Positions 2,979-52,888 of a stretch of DNA of 64,000 nt are shown piece by piece (position 1 is the stretch's first letter; each line of letters opens with the position of its first letter). The position numbers and the translations under genes are program-made. The stretch covers positions 32,001 through 96,000 of the IMG/VR virus record IMGVR_UViG_3300017761_003320; one strand, 5' to 3'. The DNA comes from a virus. The notes below the pieces were generated by a model. It made no database searches and was not told the origin of the DNA. It saw only the letters and a program-made list of their open reading frames with translations.

Positions 2979-3467
2979 ATGATAATACATGAAAGCAAGC
3001 GAATGTCAAAAACTGCCCGTAATATGGCTGTGGCTTTAGGTACAGCCGGTGAGATCCTAGTCGCAACCCTCCTAAAAGAAGAGGGTCGACATGTCGAGAT
3101 GTCTCATGATCAATATGATAGAGTTAAGGACATGTTGGTTGACGGTGTACAGAATGTTGAGGTCAAGACGCAGGTTCCTTTTATCAAGGAAAATGCTATG
3201 ACCTTTAGGCCAGATCAATTGGCTAAATGCACTAATGCTGACGAATTGTATTTCGTTCTAGTCTCTGCACCAAAACATAAGTATCATTATAGTGGTTGGG
3301 TAATGAAAGTTACAGAACCTAAGAATCTAGCAATTAGAGAATATCATACCAAAGACGGCCGCGACATGTTATTGGTTGATATTGATCAGCCTGCGGTGCA
3401 GCTTTGGAAACGTATTCCTAAGCAACATTTGTCTTTGATGAATAATCTTACGGTATCAAAATATTGA
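2979..3467 (+). CDS. putative PD-(D/E)XK nuclease-fold protein
   Basis: GxxGE helix followed by D...VEVKT motif. Confidence 0.5.
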   Translation: MIIHESKRMSKTARNMAVALGTAGEILVATLLKEEGRHVEMSHDQYDRVKDMLVDGVQNVEVKTQVPFIKENAMTFRPDQLAKCTNADELYFVLVSAPKHKYHYSGWVMKVTEPKNLAIREYHTKDGRDMLLVDIDQPAVQLWKRIPKQHLSLMNNLTVSKY

Positions 3468-3679
3468 CGATATATTTCAGACCACCAACTTCACATCCAA
3501 GGGCTGGCGAAAAAGTAAAACTGAAAAAGCCTGATGGTCGATTGATTGATGCTGAGATACATTGGGTATATGGCCAAGACAAGTATTTTTTAGTCTCTGT
3601 CAAAGATAAGAAATATGAAGAAGGTCTTACGTTTGAAGTTACTTCTGTAAAAAATATAGAATTTATTACAGATACATAG
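3464..3679 (+). CDS. hypothetical protein
   Basis: ORF fills the gap between genes. Confidence 0.5.
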   Translation: MTIYFRPPTSHPRAGEKVKLKKPDGRLIDAEIHWVYGQDKYFLVSVKDKKYEEGLTFEVTSVKNIEFITDT

Positions 3680-6209: not shown

Positions 6210-6297
6210 GGAAGGGTGGCCGAGCGGTTTAAGGCACCGCACTTGAAATGCGACGATCTGAAAAGATCCGTGAGTTCGAATCTCACCCCTTCCGCCA
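6210..6297 (+). tRNA. tRNA-Ser(TGA)
   Basis: Cloverleaf with long variable arm, CCA. Confidence 0.95.
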
Positions 6298-6303
6298 AAA
6301 TTT

Positions 6304-6393
6304 GGAAAGATGGCTGAGAGGCCTAAAGCACTCGGTTGCTAACTGAGCGGTCTAGAAATAGATCCGTGGGTTCGAATCCCACTCTTTCCGCCA
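6304..6393 (+). tRNA. tRNA-Ser(GCT)
   Basis: Cloverleaf with long variable arm, CCA. Confidence 0.95.
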
Positions 6394-6401
6394 AGTTTTG
6401 T

Positions 6402-6474
6402 GGGGAATTAGCTCAGATGGTAGAGCGCCTGCTTTGCAAGCAGGTGGTCAGCGGTTCGATTCCGCTATTCTCCA
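6402..6474 (+). tRNA. tRNA-Ala(TGC)
   Basis: GGGGAAT/ATTCTCC acceptor with G3:U70, TGC anticodon. Confidence 0.95.
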
Positions 6475-6477
6475 TAT

Positions 6478-6554
6478 GCCTGTGTAGCCCAACTGGTAGA
6501 GGCACTAGACTTAGGATCTAGCAAGTGTAGGTTCAAATCCTATCACAGGTACCA
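6478..6554 (+). tRNA. tRNA-Leu(TAG), short variable arm
   Basis: CTAGA-CTTAGGA-TCTAG arm, CCA. Confidence 0.9.
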
Positions 6555-6557
6555 TTA

Positions 6558-6629
6558 GCCCGGTTAGCTCAGCGGTAGAGCAACTCCTTTACACGGAGAA
6601 GGTCGGCGGTTCAATCCTGTCACCGGGTA
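6558..6629 (+). tRNA. tRNA-Val(TAC)
   Basis: GCCCGGT/ACCGGGT acceptor, TTTACAC loop. Confidence 0.9.
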
Positions 6630-8715: not shown

Positions 8716-9653
8716 TGTTTCGCTGGCTGCTATTAGCCTTGCTGCTACCAGTTATTGCATCGGCTAACGTCGGTTCGATAATACAGCAGCAAGGCAATTC
8801 TGTGCAGATTAAAAGAGGATCTGCTACCTTACCTGGTGGGGTAAATGCTGGCGTAAATATGAATGATGCGATAGTCACTGGTCTATCATCATTACAATTA
8901 CGTTTTCAAGATAATACGACGGCCAGCGTCACAGAGAATAGCAGATTTGTCATCGATGATTTTGTATATGATCCAAGCCGTGGTGCAGGAAGATTAAATG
9001 TTCGCGTGGCTGTCGGCACAGTGAGATATGTCTCAGGTCAGATAGCACGCAGCAATCAGCAAAACGTGCAGGTCAATACACCAACAGCCGTCATAGGTGT
9101 GCGTGGTACAGATTTCTTTATGACTGTCGATGAATCTGGGCAAAGCTTAGTGGTGCTTGTTCCTAGCTGCAATCAGCAAGGTAATTGCTACACTGGTAAG
9201 ATATCTGTGACTAATGATGGTGGTACAGTCGAGATGGATCAACCATTTCATGCAACATATGTACCAAGCGCGACGGTAGCTCCTACTGTTCCTGTGCAAC
9301 TGAATATTTCAATATCTGATATCAATAACAATCTGGTGATAGTAAAACCACCACAGATCATGCTATTGATGCAGGAATCCCAGTCATCACAACAATCATC
9401 AGAAGCACAGCAATCTGAGAATCAGTTACAGATTGTACAGACGGAGACTCGTCGACCAATTCGTAGGGTTGGAGAGCTAATTATAACTGAAGAAGGTCAG
9501 AGAACAATAGCAACTAGAGAATCAACAGGCCATACTGCAATCGTAAGAATGACTGGTGGCAATACAAGGGTAACAGTAACACATGATGGTGCCGCTGCAA
9601 CAGAAACGGTTGGTACAGGATCTAATATAGTAAATATAACACAGAAAAGGTGA
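8715..9653 (+). CDS. secreted FecR-domain protein
   Basis: Signal peptide; D.I.TG...L.F.D.T, TPTAVIGVRGTDF motifs. Confidence 0.85.
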   Translation: MFRWLLLALLLPVIASANVGSIIQQQGNSVQIKRGSATLPGGVNAGVNMNDAIVTGLSSLQLRFQDNTTASVTENSRFVIDDFVYDPSRGAGRLNVRVAVGTVRYVSGQIARSNQQNVQVNTPTAVIGVRGTDFFMTVDESGQSLVVLVPSCNQQGNCYTGKISVTNDGGTVEMDQPFHATYVPSATVAPTVPVQLNISISDINNNLVIVKPPQIMLLMQESQSSQQSSEAQQSENQLQIVQTETRRPIRRVGELIITEEGQRTIATRESTGHTAIVRMTGGNTRVTVTHDGAAATETVGTGSNIVNITQKR

Positions 9654-9658
9654 GTGTG

Positions 9659-11707
9659 ATGAAAAAATATGTACTTGCACTATCAGTATTACTGGTCATG
9701 ATCGCGCTAAAGGTATTAGACCCATGGCCAGCGCAGGTTGCACGTCTTAAATATTTTGACTTTCTAGAACGTCAGGCTGATATGGTACTTGATGATTCTA
9801 TTGTGCTAGCCAATATTGATGAGGCTGCATTACGAAAGCATGGGCAATGGCCATGGTCACGAGACGTTATTGCAGAATATATTCAAGATATTAGCAATCG
9901 TGGTGCGGCGCTTGTAGTCGCTCCGATTCTATTTGCAGAACCTGATCGCGCAGGAAAAGATAGTGTTCTGGAGCAAGCATTTCGCGAGCATCCAGTAGTA
10001 ATCGCACAGGTTCCTACGACTCAGGTGCGCGAACCATATGCAAGACCACGAGGCTCTGCGCTAATTGGCCCACCAATTGCTGATGTTTTACCAAGCTGGC
10101 CAGGTGCGATAGCACCGCTTCCACGTCTTGCTGAAGAAGCTGCTGGTGTTGGTATGGTTGCGACTATGCCTGAGCCAGATGGTGTGGTGCGTCGTAGCCC
10201 AATGCTTGTCGCAGTTGGTGATAAATTCTACCCATCAATTACCTTTGAGACATTGAGAGTTTTATCTGGCGAGATAAGCTTTCAAGTCAGATCAAATGAA
10301 GCTGGTGTCGAGGTGCTACGCATTCCAGGTCAGCCTCTCATGTATACTGATCCGAATAGTCGCATCTGGCCTAGTCGCGCATTTACATATCAATCATTTT
10401 CTGTCACAGATATGCCTGAGGATCTAGACGGAAAGATTGTCATATTATCCATGACGGCTGAAGGCTTTAGTAATCCTGTCGCGACAAGTCATGGTGAAAT
10501 GTTACCGGGAACTGTGATTGCAACAGACCTATCATCAATATTGAATCAAGTTCTATTGGTGCGACCTGCTGAAGCTGATTTCTATGAGCTTATAGCTATT
10601 TTGTTATTTGGTCTGGTTATGGTATTCTTAGCCATAAGAGTCAAACTGGTTCTAGCTGGTCTGTTATTCTTGCTGCCAGTTTCTGGTTTAATTGCAGCTT
10701 CATGGTTCGCGCATAGCTATTACTTCATACTATATGATGCTGTGCTGCCAGTATTATCATTGCTTCTGGTATTTGGTACTGGCGCTTTCTCACGCGCGCT
10801 TGAAGAGTTCCGCTTGAAGCAACAGATCAAGAAACAGTTTGGTACGTATCTGTCACCAGCGATGGTCGAGAAGCTACAAGAGAATCCGGATCTGTTGAAG
10901 CTTGGTGGTGAGGAGCGCGAGCTGTCAATCATGTTCACAGACGTGCGCGGCTTCACAGCTATCTCCGAACACTATGGTAAAGACGTGCAAGGCCTGACTA
11001 AGATCATGAATCGTTATATGACTGCAATGACGGCCTCAATACTTCGCAATGAAGGTACGCTTGACAAATACATCGGTGATGCACAGATGGCATTCTGGAA
11101 TGCGCCACTTGATGATAAAGATCATGCAAAAAATGCAGTCAAAACAATGCTAGAGATGCTAGACAACCTAAAGGAGTTCAATGATGAAATCGCAAAAGAA
11201 GGTGTCCCGGCGTTTGGTATGGGGCTTGGGATCAATACTGGTACTGTCGTCGTTGGCAACATGGGCAGTGATCAACGCTTCGACTATACTTGCTTGGGTG
11301 ACTCTGTCAACCTTGCCTCTCGACTTGAAGGCCAGTCAAAACCTTATGGAGTCAGCAACGTCATCGGTACCCTCACTTACCGATACGTTAGAGAAGAATA
11401 CCTCTGCCTTGCCCTCGATACCATTGCGGTAAAGGGTAAGAAAGAAGGGGTCGACATCTATACTGTGCTTGGTAGACCAGAAGATATTGTTCATGTCAAG
11501 ATGGATCTAGATATGCACGCGAACATGATGAAATCATATAAGAGCCGTCGATTTGATGACGCAATCTATTATGCAAAGCGTCTCAAAGGATGCTTTGGTG
11601 GTAAGATGGATGCTTATTATGCTATGTGGATGGAGCGCTGTGAAGAATTAAAAAGTGCTGGTTTATCAGAAACTTGGGACGGTGTTTTCAGAGCAAATAG
11701 TAAGTGA
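9659..11707 (+). CDS. CHASE2-domain class III adenylate cyclase
   Basis: N-terminal TM, CHASE2 (IDEAAL...GQWPWSR, DGVVRR), three TMs, intact catalytic motifs FTDVRGFT, DKYIGDA, DYTCLGDSVNLASRLE. Confidence 0.95.
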   Translation: MKKYVLALSVLLVMIALKVLDPWPAQVARLKYFDFLERQADMVLDDSIVLANIDEAALRKHGQWPWSRDVIAEYIQDISNRGAALVVAPILFAEPDRAGKDSVLEQAFREHPVVIAQVPTTQVREPYARPRGSALIGPPIADVLPSWPGAIAPLPRLAEEAAGVGMVATMPEPDGVVRRSPMLVAVGDKFYPSITFETLRVLSGEISFQVRSNEAGVEVLRIPGQPLMYTDPNSRIWPSRAFTYQSFSVTDMPEDLDGKIVILSMTAEGFSNPVATSHGEMLPGTVIATDLSSILNQVLLVRPAEADFYELIAILLFGLVMVFLAIRVKLVLAGLLFLLPVSGLIAASWFAHSYYFILYDAVLPVLSLLLVFGTGAFSRALEEFRLKQQIKKQFGTYLSPAMVEKLQENPDLLKLGGEERELSIMFTDVRGFTAISEHYGKDVQGLTKIMNRYMTAMTASILRNEGTLDKYIGDAQMAFWNAPLDDKDHAKNAVKTMLEMLDNLKEFNDEIAKEGVPAFGMGLGINTGTVVVGNMGSDQRFDYTCLGDSVNLASRLEGQSKPYGVSNVIGTLTYRYVREEYLCLALDTIAVKGKKEGVDIYTVLGRPEDIVHVKMDLDMHANMMKSYKSRRFDDAIYYAKRLKGCFGGKMDAYYAMWMERCEELKSAGLSETWDGVFRANSK

Positions 11708-12025
11708 TTAGCCTTCACCAGAAGATGCAGTCTGATCATCCTCATACATCTTATTGATCTTCACCTCCGCCGCGACTCGTTCACGTTCGATCGTCTTGCC
11801 GCGGAGGTGAAGAACCACATTGACCTTTTGTTGTAGGCGAATTAGATCATTATCCAACATTCGAATACGATCGATCAGGCCGATGAGAACGGTATTGGTT
11901 TCGGATAGAACGGGTTTTACCTCTGTGGTGGCCCATACCCAAACATAGTAAACCATATAACCGACGCCGCCAGCCGCGACAATAGGAAACCCATATTTAC
12001 CTATTAGTTCAGCTAATTCACCCAT
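11708..12025 (-). CDS. small membrane protein with GFPI motif (YvrJ-like), paralog 1
   Basis: YGFPIVAAGG, one TM, coiled coil (LIDRIRMLDNDLIRL). Confidence 0.7.
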   Translation of the reverse strand: MGELAELIGKYGFPIVAAGGVGYMVYYVWVWATTEVKPVLSETNTVLIGLIDRIRMLDNDLIRLQQKVNVVLHLRGKTIERERVAAEVKINKMYEDDQTASSGEG

Positions 12026-12184: not shown

Positions 12185-12466
12185 TTAATCTCTCCTCGCA
12201 TCATTCTTGCCGTCGGCTCTTGCTATTCGCTCGACATCTGGTTTTAATCCTAGGGCATTAGAGACTACAGTATCAATTCTTACCACGTCATGGTTCATGG
12301 TACGTACCCGGTTATCAAGGGCCGTGATGATCCCGGCCATACCCTTGACTGACCCGGTTACTCCAGCAAGGATGAATTTCATGGTCAGAAAAACAAAGTA
12401 GCCAGCGGCTCCGGCTGCTGCTATTGGAAACCCTACATCAGCCACAAGCTTAAAGAATATATCCAT
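12185..12466 (-). CDS. small membrane protein with GFPI motif (YvrJ-like), paralog 2
   Basis: VGFPIAAAGAAG, one TM, LDNRVRTMNHDVVRI; GGAGG RBS; CTAAATA late-like promoter near 12485-12491. Confidence 0.7.
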   Translation of the reverse strand: MDIFFKLVADVGFPIAAAGAAGYFVFLTMKFILAGVTGSVKGMAGIITALDNRVRTMNHDVVRIDTVVSNALGLKPDVERIARADGKNDARRD

Positions 12467-12510
12467 AGCTACCTCCCATTCACCTATTTAGAGAAAGCCA
12501 CAAATAACCC

Positions 12511-12539
12511 TGTACAATATACCTAAAGTAGTGTATAAT
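12511..12539 (+). promoter_or_regulatory. early/middle promoter
   Basis: TGTACA-17bp-TATAAT, same -35 variant as the repeated cassette. Confidence 0.7.
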
Positions 12540-12570
12540 GATCCTTGTGACAAGACAGGGTATACATAAT

Positions 12571-12993
12571 ATGGCACTCCTACCTTCTTATTTTACTACC
12601 ACAAGCACGCGCAAGCGCAAGTCCAAAGCTAAGTCCAAGGCTGTCAAAGCGGCTGAGGCTCAGACAGCTGCGCTGCTAGAGAAGGTAGGTTATCTGGGTG
12701 TGGCCAAGCCTGGTAAGGCGCCTGCTTTGGGTGCAGGAGATCAGAGGTTCGAATCCTCTCGCCCCGACCATTCTCTTCCTACATCAGATACGATTCCTGG
12801 TGGCACATTTGCCAAGCGCGATATCATGAATGATTGGCGGTGGCAGGCTGGTCGCGAGGAGAAGGCTAGTGTAGTGCAAGCTATGCGCGAAAAGGCCTCT
12901 CGTGTTCAACCATTATATAACAAGGGTGGCTATCAGGTCGCATCAGTCAATGATGATCCAGCTACCCTTGGTTCACGTTCTCGGAGGCTTTGA
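12571..12993 (+). CDS. T4-like hypothetical protein containing a nested tRNA
   Basis: LLPSYFTTTSTRKRK N-terminus and PLYNKGGYQV C-terminal motif; open through the tRNA. Confidence 0.7.
   Translation: MALLPSYFTTTSTRKRKSKAKSKAVKAAEAQTAALLEKVGYLGVAKPGKAPALGAGDQRFESSRPDHSLPTSDTIPGGTFAKRDIMNDWRWQAGREEKASVVQAMREKASRVQPLYNKGGYQVASVNDDPATLGSRSRRL
12694..12770 (+). tRNA. tRNA-Pro(TGG) nested within a CDS
   Basis: CTGGGTG...CCTGC-TTTGGGT-GCAGG...GAGG-TTCGAAT-CCTC...CGCCCCG-A-CCA; one acceptor mismatch (T2:C71). Confidence 0.85.
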
Positions 12994-12994
12994 T

Positions 12995-13273
12995 ATGATT
13001 CCGATTGGTCTAATAAATCGTGGAAATATCTTTCCATTATTATGTGTATCAATCCTCACATCTCATGGTGTAGGTTCTATTCTGGAAAAGATAGTAGAAC
13101 CTGGTTTAAATTGGACATATGTTCTGGCCTTTGGTATCACGACATGGGCCTGGATTCGTCTATATGATTATATTTTCAAAGATATAGTCACCACCTCAAT
13201 CAGAGGCACTCTACAATATCTTATTCAAGAAGGTAAAATCAAAGAAAGTGATGTGGATTTAGAAAATGAGTGA
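12995..13273 (+). CDS. hypothetical membrane protein
   Basis: GGAGG RBS, two hydrophobic segments. Confidence 0.6.
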   Translation: MIPIGLINRGNIFPLLCVSILTSHGVGSILEKIVEPGLNWTYVLAFGITTWAWIRLYDYIFKDIVTTSIRGTLQYLIQEGKIKESDVDLENE

Positions 13274-13535
13274 ATATTTGGAATTGAATGGCGATATTTT
13301 GCATGATTATTTGCGCCATTCGGTATTGATTGTGTCATTTGACAAGGTGAATGGTGAACGGCGTGATATGACTTGCACGTTAGATCGCAAATATTTACCT
13401 GTTGATCAGCAAGCCGATGCAGTGGTTGCGAAGCCTAATAAGGCTTCCTTGGCTGTATGGGATCTAAATGCTAATGGATGGAGGAGTTTCCGTCTAGATA
13501 GGGTCATCAACATTCAAGAGGTGAGTTATCCATGA
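13266..13535 (+). CDS. WYL_2/SH3-barrel family protein
   Basis: F.K.NGERRDMTCTL and VWDL...WRSFRLD motifs. Confidence 0.75.
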   Translation: MSEYLELNGDILHDYLRHSVLIVSFDKVNGERRDMTCTLDRKYLPVDQQADAVVAKPNKASLAVWDLNANGWRSFRLDRVINIQEVSYP

Positions 13536-14518
13536 CTAAGCTAAATGTGACAGGTCTCAAAGAAAAGTCCAAGACTCTTGGACCAGGTCCAGATGGTACC
13601 TATGCACATATTGGTGCGCGTGGTGGTACAGAGATGATGATGGACGGCCTGCGCCGTTATGTATCACATGAATTACTGGACAAGTTTAACATCATTTGTT
13701 CTCGTGTAACTGGTCAGATTGATCCTAACCAGAACAATCTGCTATGGTTGCATGATACTTGGGATGATCCTGAGTCACAGCATCTAGCCGAAGAGGAATC
13801 GCGCAAGCGTTTCAAGAGGCTTGTATTTGTTTCAAATTATCAACAGGCCACATACAATATTGGCCTCGGTGTACCGCATTCAGATGGTGTTGTGCTTCCA
13901 AATGCAATCGATCCTATCGAGCCGCATGAGAAGCCAAAGGGTACGATCAATTTGATCTATCACACGACCCCGCATCGTGGTCTAGAATTGCTGTATCCTA
14001 TATGCGAATATCTCGCAAATCAAGGATATGATTTTCATCTAGATGTGTATAGCTCATTCTCCATCTATGGTTGGAGTCAACGTGATGAGCCTTACAAGGA
14101 GCTGTTCCAAAAAATTACGCGGCATCCAAATATGACCTATCATGGTTATCAGCCAAATGAGATTGTGCGTGAAGCCTTGAAGAAGGCACACATCTATGCT
14201 TATCCAAACATCTGGCCAGAGACTAGCGCAATCAGCGTGATCGAGGCTATGAGCGCAGGATGTACGATTGTTTGCCCAAATCACGCGGCTTTACCAGAGA
14301 CCACTGCTGGATTTGCAGCGATGTATCCATTCACGGAAGATGCGAATGCCCACGCCAATCGTCATGTATCGGTGCTAGCTGAGGTGATTGATGGCTTCTG
14401 GGATAATAGCAATCAGAATAAGCTGCGCTTCCAGAAAATGTATACAGATAATTTCTATAGCTGGGAGCTTCGCTCTCGCCAATGGACCAGTTTCCTTTCA
14501 AACATGAAGCCGGAATAA
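13532..14518 (+). CDS. GT4-family (GT-B) glycosyltransferase
   Basis: GGTE, PHRGL, ETSAISVIEAMSAG (Ex7E). Confidence 0.85.
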   Translation: MTKLNVTGLKEKSKTLGPGPDGTYAHIGARGGTEMMMDGLRRYVSHELLDKFNIICSRVTGQIDPNQNNLLWLHDTWDDPESQHLAEEESRKRFKRLVFVSNYQQATYNIGLGVPHSDGVVLPNAIDPIEPHEKPKGTINLIYHTTPHRGLELLYPICEYLANQGYDFHLDVYSSFSIYGWSQRDEPYKELFQKITRHPNMTYHGYQPNEIVREALKKAHIYAYPNIWPETSAISVIEAMSAGCTIVCPNHAALPETTAGFAAMYPFTEDANAHANRHVSVLAEVIDGFWDNSNQNKLRFQKMYTDNFYSWELRSRQWTSFLSNMKPE

Positions 14519-29481: not shown

Positions 29482-29556
29482 AGGCTGGTAGCTCAGAGGA
29501 AGAGCGAGGGACTCTTAACCCCTAGGTCGGGATCTCGGAATTCCCCCAGCCTACCA
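29482..29556 (+). tRNA. tRNA-Lys(CTT), variant T-loop
   Basis: AGGCTGG/CCAGCCT acceptor, CTCTTAA loop, T-loop CTCGGAA, CCA. Confidence 0.85.
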
Positions 29557-39307: not shown

Positions 39308-39398
39308 CGGCGTGAGGGCTGGTGCTCACCAGGAGCTTATACCTCCTTAGGCAGCTGATTACTGTTGGGATAGGGTTCGATTCCCTACGCGCCGACCA
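39308..39398 (+). tRNA. atypical tRNA with TAT (Ile) anticodon and long variable arm
   Basis: CGGCGTG/CGCGCCG acceptor, D arm GGGC-TGGT-GCTC, AGGAG-CTTATAC-CTCCT, TAGGG-TTCGATT-CCCTA, ACCA. Confidence 0.8.
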
Positions 39399-39618: not shown

Positions 39619-39707
39619 GGGGAAGCTGCTCGGATGGCGGACGGGCACCGGACTGTAAATCCGGCACATAAGAAACGCAGTAGGTTCGAATCCTACCTTC
39701 CCCACCA
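39619..39707 (+). tRNA. tRNA-Tyr(GTA)
   Basis: CCGGA-CTGTAAA-TCCGG arm, long variable region, CCA. Confidence 0.9.
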
Positions 39708-51912: not shown

Positions 51913-52571
51913 GATTTCATAATGAGCTGGTAAATTTACCAGAGCTAACTGCAACACAAACAGAGCATGGCCGCATGTATAATGTACCTGGCGGCCATGC
52001 CTATCCTTCTATCACTACCGTCTTGGGTGCTAGACCTGAAAAGAAAAAGATCATAGCTGAATGGCGCGCACGAGTCGGCGAACAAGAAGCAAATAAGGTA
52101 TCAGCACAAGCATCTCGTCGCGGAACTTCCATTCATAAGATGATGGAAGACTGGATTACTGGTGAACCTATCACTGGTGGTATGGTTGACCGTGAGATGT
52201 TTGCTACCATGCATCCATATGTGGATAAGCATCTACAGACTGTCTATGCTCTAGAGGCCCCTTTGTATTCTCATAAACTAGGTGTGGCTGGCAGATGTGA
52301 TTTGGTGGGTAAATGGGCTGGTGTCAATTGTATTATTGACTTCAAAACATCAAAACGGCTAAAAAGCGAAGAACATATAGACAATTACCTTCTTCAGGCC
52401 ACAGCTTATTCGATCATGTTTGAGGAATTGACTAGCACCATCATACCAGGTATTGTGATATTGATTGGTGTTGATGGTGAACCTAAACCTCAGATGTTTT
52501 GTAGGTTTCGTGCCAAATATGTCGACCAGCTATACGGTGTGATAGCCGACTATTATCAAAATAGCCGTTGA
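51909..52571 (+). CDS. PD-(D/E)XK exonuclease (Cas4/RecB-like)
   Basis: YPSITTVL, RGTSIH, AGRCD, IIDFKTS, QATAY. Confidence 0.88.
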   Translation: MRFHNELVNLPELTATQTEHGRMYNVPGGHAYPSITTVLGARPEKKKIIAEWRARVGEQEANKVSAQASRRGTSIHKMMEDWITGEPITGGMVDREMFATMHPYVDKHLQTVYALEAPLYSHKLGVAGRCDLVGKWAGVNCIIDFKTSKRLKSEEHIDNYLLQATAYSIMFEELTSTIIPGIVILIGVDGEPKPQMFCRFRAKYVDQLYGVIADYYQNSR

Positions 52572-52602
52572 CTTTATAAACATAACCCTGTATAAGTAGT
52601 AT

Positions 52603-52837
52603 TGTCATCGTTGATGGCGACAGAATAGATGTCACGGACCGCGGGGCGGCACCGCGCAGCTCCACCATTCATGGGGCTGAAATAGATATCGACGTGCATG
52701 GTAAAGGTTGACCGGAGATGACGGCTAGCGGCCTAACCGCTATTGATAAGTGCCAATGATAACGGCTTTGCCGTCGCACTCGCTGCCTAATAGGTAAGCG
52801 CGGTTTGGGGAGCACCGGGCAACATAAGCTCCCCACC
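52603..52837 (+). ncRNA. ssrA: circularly permuted two-piece tmRNA (alphaproteobacterial type)
   Basis: Acceptor piece ends CAGCTCCACCA (52667), 5-nt linker, coding piece starts GGGGCTGAAATAG (52673); tag ANDNGFAVALAA* at 52752-52790; outer ends approximate. Confidence 0.92.
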
Positions 52838-52888
52838 TGACTCTCATGATTACATGATGCCAGGATCAACAACAGAAGGATAATACCC

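Follow-up and report, generated by a model that had tools for sequence, protein, structure and literature searches.

A tRNA-Pro gene read in-frame as part of a protein-coding gene in a freshwater phage

Can the same bases of one DNA strand serve both as a complete tRNA gene and as the middle of a protein-coding gene? The question is raised by a locus in a 64,000-nucleotide stretch of viral DNA, here called the window, which corresponds to bases 32001-96000 of a 155,201-bp virus record that has direct terminal repeats and derives from freshwater metagenomes. A sequence-only reading of the window had described a whole tRNA-Pro(TGG) lying on the same strand as an ORF that runs through it, with protein-like motifs on both sides, and had proposed that the DNA is put to two uses. 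It had also offered the alternative that a mismatch in the acceptor stem marks a decaying tRNA kept as a linker. The comparisons presented here argue for the first of these ideas and, as far as the lineage is concerned, against the second. The features on which the argument turns are these:

12511-12539 (+): putative sigma-70-like promoter, TGTACA, 17 nt, TATAAT; 10/12 matches in a consensus scan
12571-12993 (+): complete CDS, 140 codons and a stop; from the family HMM, alignments and dN/dS
12571-12693 (+): N-terminal coding flank, codons 1-41; dN/dS 0.19
12694-12770 (+): tRNA-Pro(UGG), 77 nt including an encoded CCA; from ARAGORN and Rfam
12771-12990 (+): C-terminal coding flank, codons 67-140, in the same frame; dN/dS 0.20, then 0.06
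12984-12997 (+): coupling junction, with GGAGG at 12984-12988 in the end of the ORF, TGA at 12991-12993 and ATG at 12995

The genome has a G+C content of 41.9%, and all of its 17 tRNA genes and its permuted tmRNA of the alphaproteobacterial type lie within the window. The large window protein used to place the phage has no match among cultured phages. The tmRNA (52564-52881, +) is of the permuted two-piece type with the tag ANDNGFAVALAA and scores 123.5 bits against Rfam alpha_tmRNA. Rfam also finds a tRNA at 29482-29553 (+; 45.6 bits) that is absent from the ARAGORN list, and two ARAGORN calls, tRNA-Ile(tat) at 39308-39398 (+, 91 nt) and tRNA-Tyr at 39619-39707 (+, 89 nt), are without an Rfam match at the gathering threshold.

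The neighbours of the locus are a CHASE2 cyclase, small membrane proteins, a WYL_2 protein and a glycosyltransferase. The relatives L013 and L014 have a Ser-Ala-Leu tRNA array that stops 100 nt 5' of the gene with the nested tRNA; the gap is ~1.2 kb in the relative L012, and in the window ~5.9 kb separates the same array (6210-6629, plus an extra Ser(gct) and a Val) from the CDS. Within this stretch lies a gene for a CHASE2 and adenylate/guanylate cyclase protein (9650-11707), an odd cargo for a phage. Divergent to the tRNA-bearing gene are two paralogous small membrane-like proteins (11708-12025 and 12185-12466, both on the minus strand), which share the motif GFPI.AAG, lie on either side of a 50-aa basic ORF and have no Pfam match. 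Two genes 3' of the CDS is an 89-aa WYL_2 protein with an Sm-like SH3 barrel (13266-13535, +), and a group 1 glycosyltransferase (13532-14518) comes after it. A reading as an attP or integration site, for which one would expect a 3' fragment of a host tRNA beside an integrase gene, was rejected: the tRNA is whole at 77 nt and there is no integrase in the neighbourhood.

The tRNA, the gene and the selection acting on both

ARAGORN places a tRNA-Pro(tgg) at 12694-12770 on the plus strand, and Rfam scores the same bases at 55.4 bits against RF00005 (gathering score 29; E 3.2e-9). The anticodon TGG is at 12728-12730. The sequence and its alignment give a 7-base anticodon loop with U before and G after the UGG, a T-loop of TTCGAAT, GG in the D-loop, C1:G72, A73 and the encoded CCA. 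We take C1:G72 together with A73 to be the ProRS identity set known for E. coli. Starting at ATG 12571 and ending with TGA 12991-12993, the ORF stays open across all of this and reads the peptide that had been quoted for it; the tRNA spans the first base of codon 42 to the second base of codon 67 and is read in-frame as codons 42-67. Only 1 of the 17 tRNAs of the genome has a long sense frame around it. Stop to stop this frame has 153 codons, versus at most 106 or none for the other 16, and the nesting of the tRNA-Pro in this CDS is beyond chance.

Judged by its homologs, the ORF at 12571-12993 is a real gene and both of its flanks belong to one protein. The flanks are not separate genes because homologs align across both of them in one ORF, close relatives with the tRNA between them and distant ones, such as gp035 of Caulobacter phage Cr30, without it. 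The protein-like motifs that had been noticed on both sides of the tRNA are thus borne out, since the homologs match on both flanks. The family HMM covers the CDS at full length (E 1.4e-45) and the gene is present in a single copy in the genome. Members of the family have the motif M.LLP.Y(F/Y)TT..(K/R)RK in the N-terminal part and YNKGG.Q in the C-terminal part, both within one ORF of ~115-145 aa; the window protein has M.LLP.YFTT..RKRK and YNKGGYQV. When viral contigs were scanned with the 140-aa product, 21 close relatives (80-99% identity, equal length) were found, every one with the tRNA, together with 3 distant relatives (28-29% identity) that have both motifs (as M.LLP.YF.T..RKRK and YNKGGYQV) in one tRNA-less ORF of 115-133 aa. 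Homologs without a tRNA and with both motifs in one ORF include L024-L026, Cr30 gp035 and most of the 190 loci discussed in the next section.

Profile searches show a large family of small proteins, ~130 aa long, with 222 members in one database and, at 50% identity, 749 clusters in another. Two annotated members are Cr30 gp035 (YP_009098793), called a "hypothetical protein", and gene 124 of Methylophilales phage Melnitz (QZI94853). No usable hint of the function of the family came from Pfam, PHROGs, NCBIfam, a PDB profile search or the ESM Atlas; phrog_4593, a PHROG that itself has no function, matches 3 of 18 family members. The product is a small, basic phage protein that is predicted to be mostly disordered. 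AlphaFold2, given a 62-sequence alignment, places helices at residues 23-39 and 99-112 and has low confidence elsewhere, including the tRNA-encoded residues 42-67. In this prediction the 26 tRNA-encoded residues sit in a disordered linker.

The clade of the window comprises 17 distinct CDS, each 423 nt long. At codon positions 1, 2 and 3, the N flank has 14, 12 and 33 variable sites (of 41 each) and the C flank 13, 14 and 63 (of 73-74). In the annotated frame dN/dS is 0.19 (N flank) and 0.13 (C flank). Shifted frames give 1.4 and 1.9 for the N flank and more than 1 for the C flank. The tRNA segment behaves differently. Only 6 of its 77 sites vary in the clade, though synonymous divergence in the flanks is ~0.46, and its third positions vary at 3 of 25 versus 96 of 115 in the flanks (Fisher p 1.3e-11). 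Five of the 6 variable sites are loop positions or changes from A-U to G.U, and the remaining one is the U2 of the window copy.

The stems tell the same story on a wider sample. Across 17 distinct nested tRNA-Pro sequences from several lineages, 96.9% of stem cells are paired, versus 42-51% in controls in which the partners were slid. Compensatory two-sided changes are seen in 12 of the 21 stem pairs, with all helices represented, a result that 0 of 500 shuffles reached. The Pro, Trp, Arg and Ala lineages are alike in how flanks and tRNA evolve: flank dN/dS is 0.02-0.30, and the tRNA part evolves slowly with a ratio of ~1 and no codon-position bias. To judge from these patterns of substitution, the 77 bases are held by selection both as a tRNA and as protein code. 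The claim of dual-use DNA therefore stands, the flanks and the tRNA each being under a purifying selection of their own.

Other tRNAs in the same slot

The family HMM and ARAGORN were applied to 190 loci, which yielded 110 distinct full-length CDS. A same-strand tRNA within one uninterrupted ORF is found in 38 of the 110, always right after a "WLK..G" motif, although this fraction is not a prevalence, tRNA-bearing members having been the seeds for one of the two locus scans. Cluster representatives free of this bias, screened roughly at the peptide level, give ~15 nested among 145, or about one in ten. The 38 are divided as follows:

Pro(TGG): 24 distinct CDS, phase 0
Trp(CCA): 5 distinct CDS, phase 1
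Trp(CCA): 4 distinct CDS, phase 2
Arg(TCT) and Pro in tandem: 3 distinct CDS, phases 1 and 0
Arg(TCT) alone: 1 distinct CDS, phase 1
Ala(TGC): 1 distinct CDS, phase 1

A Thr(TGT) is nested in a partial family member as well. In six extra loci the match is confined to the N-terminal half of the family; the ORFs there still cross the tRNA, the C-terminal motif is absent in every frame, and these loci were excluded from the nested counts.

The frame is open in all 38 distinct nested CDS, and among the 190 loci there is none in which the halves of the gene lie in different frames around a tRNA or in which the gene is split. Among the free-standing tRNAs of the same loci, by comparison, only 30% of the combinations of tRNA and phase are stop-free. 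Phase 0 is open in almost every tRNA-Pro. Of the two tRNA-Trp alleles, each occurs solely in a phase that it leaves open. In the nested tRNA-Arg genes the D-loop is one base longer than in most free-standing ones, which takes the TAG of the D-arm out of the reading phase.

With the tRNA-encoded columns removed from the alignment, the tree places the clade of the window inside a tRNA-less group (support 96) and calls for at least 12 changes of state. A single clade of tRNA bearers is rejected (AU test p 4.8e-10, lnL difference 125). The comparison thus shows a slot that has been filled repeatedly and independently by different tRNAs.

One of these cases is in a cultured phage. Melnitz (MZ577097.1, our locus L194) has a tRNA-Trp at 1686-1759 in phase 2 of gene 124, whose CDS at 1492-1935 is annotated in GenBank across the tRNA. 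The paper describing Melnitz enters the tRNA-Trp as gene 125 and passes over the nesting without remark. This phage also has a tmRNA of its own. Pelagibacter phage Mosig came up as a candidate member and was rejected, its match being a free-standing tRNA array beside an unrelated ORF.

Not only the kind of tRNA but also its allele changes. The pairs L028/L114 and L117/L032 have near-identical flanks and tRNA-Pro alleles that are unlike in every stem. The exchange in L117 is exact, 77 nt for 77 nt, and in L032 an 18-nt in-frame remnant of the 3' end of the old tRNA follows the new one. This points to the swapping of tRNA-Pro alleles as cassettes. Directly 5' of the gene with the swapped allele, L032 has an HNH endonuclease-like ORF in place of the tRNA-Asn of the near-identical L028 and L029 (L032 2464-2883, 2913-3215), which may hint at an endonuclease-driven exchange of tRNA cassettes. 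A change of another kind is seen in L027, where the nested tRNA-Pro (3208-3293, 86 nt) has a 9-nt in-frame duplication in its variable loop; the next gene there (3432-3635) encodes ribosomal protein S21.

Where did the inserts come from? The gene lies directly 3' of the tRNA array in several relatives, and the adjoining array is a likely source. The closest relatives without a tRNA (L089, L110, L112 and others) were also searched for decayed tRNAs in their linkers. Rfam found none at E values up to 10, and local alignment of these linkers to the tRNA was no better than that of shuffles, so the idea that these linkers hold decayed tRNAs was ruled out. Because they carry no trace of a tRNA, the window lineage most likely gained its tRNA, as opposed to its relatives having lost theirs by decay.

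The transcript and its two proposed fates

The promoter-like element lies ~30 nt 5' of the start codon, and an upstream alignment of 11 relatives shows a perfect TTGACA-17-TATAAT at the equivalent place. There is no separate promoter immediately 5' of the tRNA: upstream of it the scan matches solely the promoter of the gene itself, and coding sequence fills the 123 bases directly 5' of the tRNA. At the other end the gene runs into the next one (12995-13273), which encodes a small membrane-like protein. The stop and the next start abut or overlap in 11 of 11 relatives, as TGAtATG in the window and as a TAATG type in the relatives, though the downstream gene differs.

Two lake metatranscriptome libraries from different studies contain RNA contigs of a close relative, one with G2, spanning 12582-12875 and 12582-13325. 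The tRNA is bridged in full, with more than 100 nt to either side, which is compatible with an unprocessed mRNA, although contigs reveal no ends and no strand and DNA can be present in RNA libraries. Both contigs (from X15 and X16) start at 12582 and leave 12485-12581 uncovered. This is at most a weak hint that the 5' end of the transcript is somewhat downstream of the predicted start; the gap is no evidence that these bases are absent, nor does it put the ATG beyond the RNA. Matches in two other RNA runs (X17 and X18) were rejected as phage transcript, for they are only 57-61-nt contigs that cover the 3' half of the tRNA with unlike letters before the match, and they belong to the tRNAs of other organisms. 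When the mRNA context (12546-12900) is folded, the z-score is 0.06 and the cloverleaf is recovered only in part.

We consider it likely that this is a true dual-coding locus: a small early-type gene driven by a promoter, with a complete tRNA-Pro in a predicted disordered linker and a transcript that can meet either of two fates. The gene would be transcribed from its own sigma-70-like promoter. In the first fate, ribosomes starting at 12571 would read through the tRNA and make the 140-aa protein, with the 26 tRNA-encoded residues carried along as a passenger linker, before passing to the gene coupled downstream. In the other fate, the tRNA would fold, RNase P and the enzymes of 3' processing would excise it, and the phage would obtain its only tRNA-Pro. 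Excision would split the message into a 5' piece with no stop and a 3' piece with no start for the ORF. From the biology of RNase P we infer that tRNA excision and translation are mutually exclusive on any one transcript. The tRNA probably came from the adjoining array by recombination. It would have survived within the gene because a tRNA-Pro is naturally stop-free in the phase used and because the linker tolerates any peptide. More speculatively, ribosome occupancy might set the ratio of the two fates, and the tmRNA might rescue ribosomes from the stop-less 5' fragment.

A more ambitious form of the same idea can be put forward, though we doubt that it holds in full. The linker would be a dedicated slot for exchangeable tRNAs, with cassettes traded with the adjacent array by recombination and homing endonucleases perhaps helping. 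The contest between ribosome and RNase P would then be a switch. Brisk translation would yield the protein along with the products of the genes coupled downstream; with few ribosomes available, the tRNA would fold and be released, and the tmRNA at 52564-52881 would clear the stop-less 5' fragments that each excision leaves. The tie between the tmRNA and these fragments is only a guess.

Two other explanations deserve discussion, and we regard both as improbable. The first is that the tRNA of the window is decaying and has no role left but that of a protein linker, so that the protein alone matters. The mismatch on which this was based is real: U2.C71 lies at 12695/12765 in the window copy alone, the other 16 of 17 distinct nested tRNA-Pro sequences having G2:C71. 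It is probably a true variant and not an assembly error because DNA runs contain all the sampled words of the window sequence. The acceptor stem of this copy is thus not fully paired, and the mismatch may weaken it. Relics do occur in the family, too, since L032 keeps the remnant of a replaced tRNA as in-frame linker. However, this is a single change, and the remaining stem pairs and the conserved loop bases are all intact. The whole-genome tRNA repertoire contains no other tRNA-Pro, and CCA is the commonest Pro codon of the phage at 39%. The tRNA segment of the clade is far more conserved than a linker needs, and the linkers of tRNA-less relatives are free of any tRNA trace. With G2:C71 in the relatives and stems that covary, decay finds no support in the lineage and is improbable for this one copy.

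The second is that the tRNA is functional and no useful full-length protein is made. The frame would be kept open to guard against premature termination, Rho polarity or the loss of coupling, or else the C-terminal part would be made from an internal start. This explanation has some appeal. The stop/start junction is kept even where the next gene differs, a folded tRNA could hinder ribosomes, and an ATG at codon 105 is present in 17 of the 17 clade members. But codons 68-104, which precede that ATG, are themselves under selection as protein, with a dN/dS of 0.20 in the window clade (0.06 for codons 105-140) and variable third positions at 31 of 37 codons versus 9-10 at positions 1 and 2. They align to the conserved "IP.SN.IP.G" of tRNA-less members. 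No ATG, GTG or TTG between the end of the tRNA and codon 105 is conserved across the window clade, and codons 68-104 are therefore reachable only by ribosomes that come from 12571 through the tRNA. Codon 105 is moreover I or L in most of the family, the nearest purine-rich run is ~20 nt upstream of it, and both flanks match tRNA-less homologs as a single protein.

There is little left to be said for a chance open frame over a free-standing tRNA with flanks that are non-coding or separate genes: gene callers do produce spurious ORFs across tRNAs, and the database entry P0024 (67 aa) covers only the part 3' of the tRNA, but this reading is refuted by flanks whose counterparts form one ORF in hundreds of tRNA-less relatives, by frame-specific purifying selection on those flanks and by the other 16 tRNAs of the window, which have no comparable frame.

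Comparison with known systems

We return to the likely reading, a dual-coding locus with two fates for its transcript, and to what it would mean. Genes are usually classed as RNA or protein; here 77 bases are under selection as both. Annotation pipelines usually disallow the overlap of a tRNA and a CDS, so that one of the two features is truncated. For large phages, nesting would be a way to add tRNAs to a packed genome without a new promoter. It would also be a natural system for studying tRNA processing against translation on one RNA, and Melnitz is a cultured phage that carries a nested tRNA.

Transcripts that hold both tRNAs and mRNAs are well known, among them the tRNA-tufB and tyrT-tpr operons of E. 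coli and the tRNA cluster of T4 with its small ORFs. In such operons one promoter serves all, and RNase P and other nucleases separate the tRNAs from the mRNA. The tRNAs lie beside the coding sequences there and processing spares the ORF, whereas here the tRNA is inside it. Mitochondrial tRNA punctuation is another parallel: tRNA structures in a long transcript are cleavage signals that define the ends of the RNAs. Those tRNAs part complete genes, whereas cleavage here would cut one gene in two.

The closest precedent is found in the Alphaproteobacteria, where selC, the gene for tRNA-Sec, is nested in the selB ORF, in what describes itself as the first such report (Mukai 2021, Int J Mol Sci 22:4605, PMC8124441). 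A full-text literature search for tRNAs nested in ORFs turned up this paper alone for bacteria and none for phages. The two systems are alike in that a whole sense-strand tRNA lies within an uninterrupted ORF and is read in-frame, the stop of the host ORF overlaps or abuts the start of the next, and remnants of tRNAs persist as coding sequence. They share a model, too, in which the folding and processing of the tRNA are set against the full-length protein, and both are bioinformatic predictions. They differ in where the tRNA lies and in what it is. The selC sequence is a C-terminal extension after a functional protein, whereas here the tRNA is in the middle of the ORF with 73 conserved codons, themselves under purifying selection, after it. 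The tRNA of selC is the ligand of the protein that carries it, whereas the slot described here holds Pro, Arg, Arg and Pro, Trp, Ala, Thr or nothing at all. The host here is a phage gene, and at least 5 tRNA identities, single or in tandem, have been swapped in it. We believe this work extends the single published precedent of selC in selB from a C-terminal appendix to swappable inserts in the middle of a gene.
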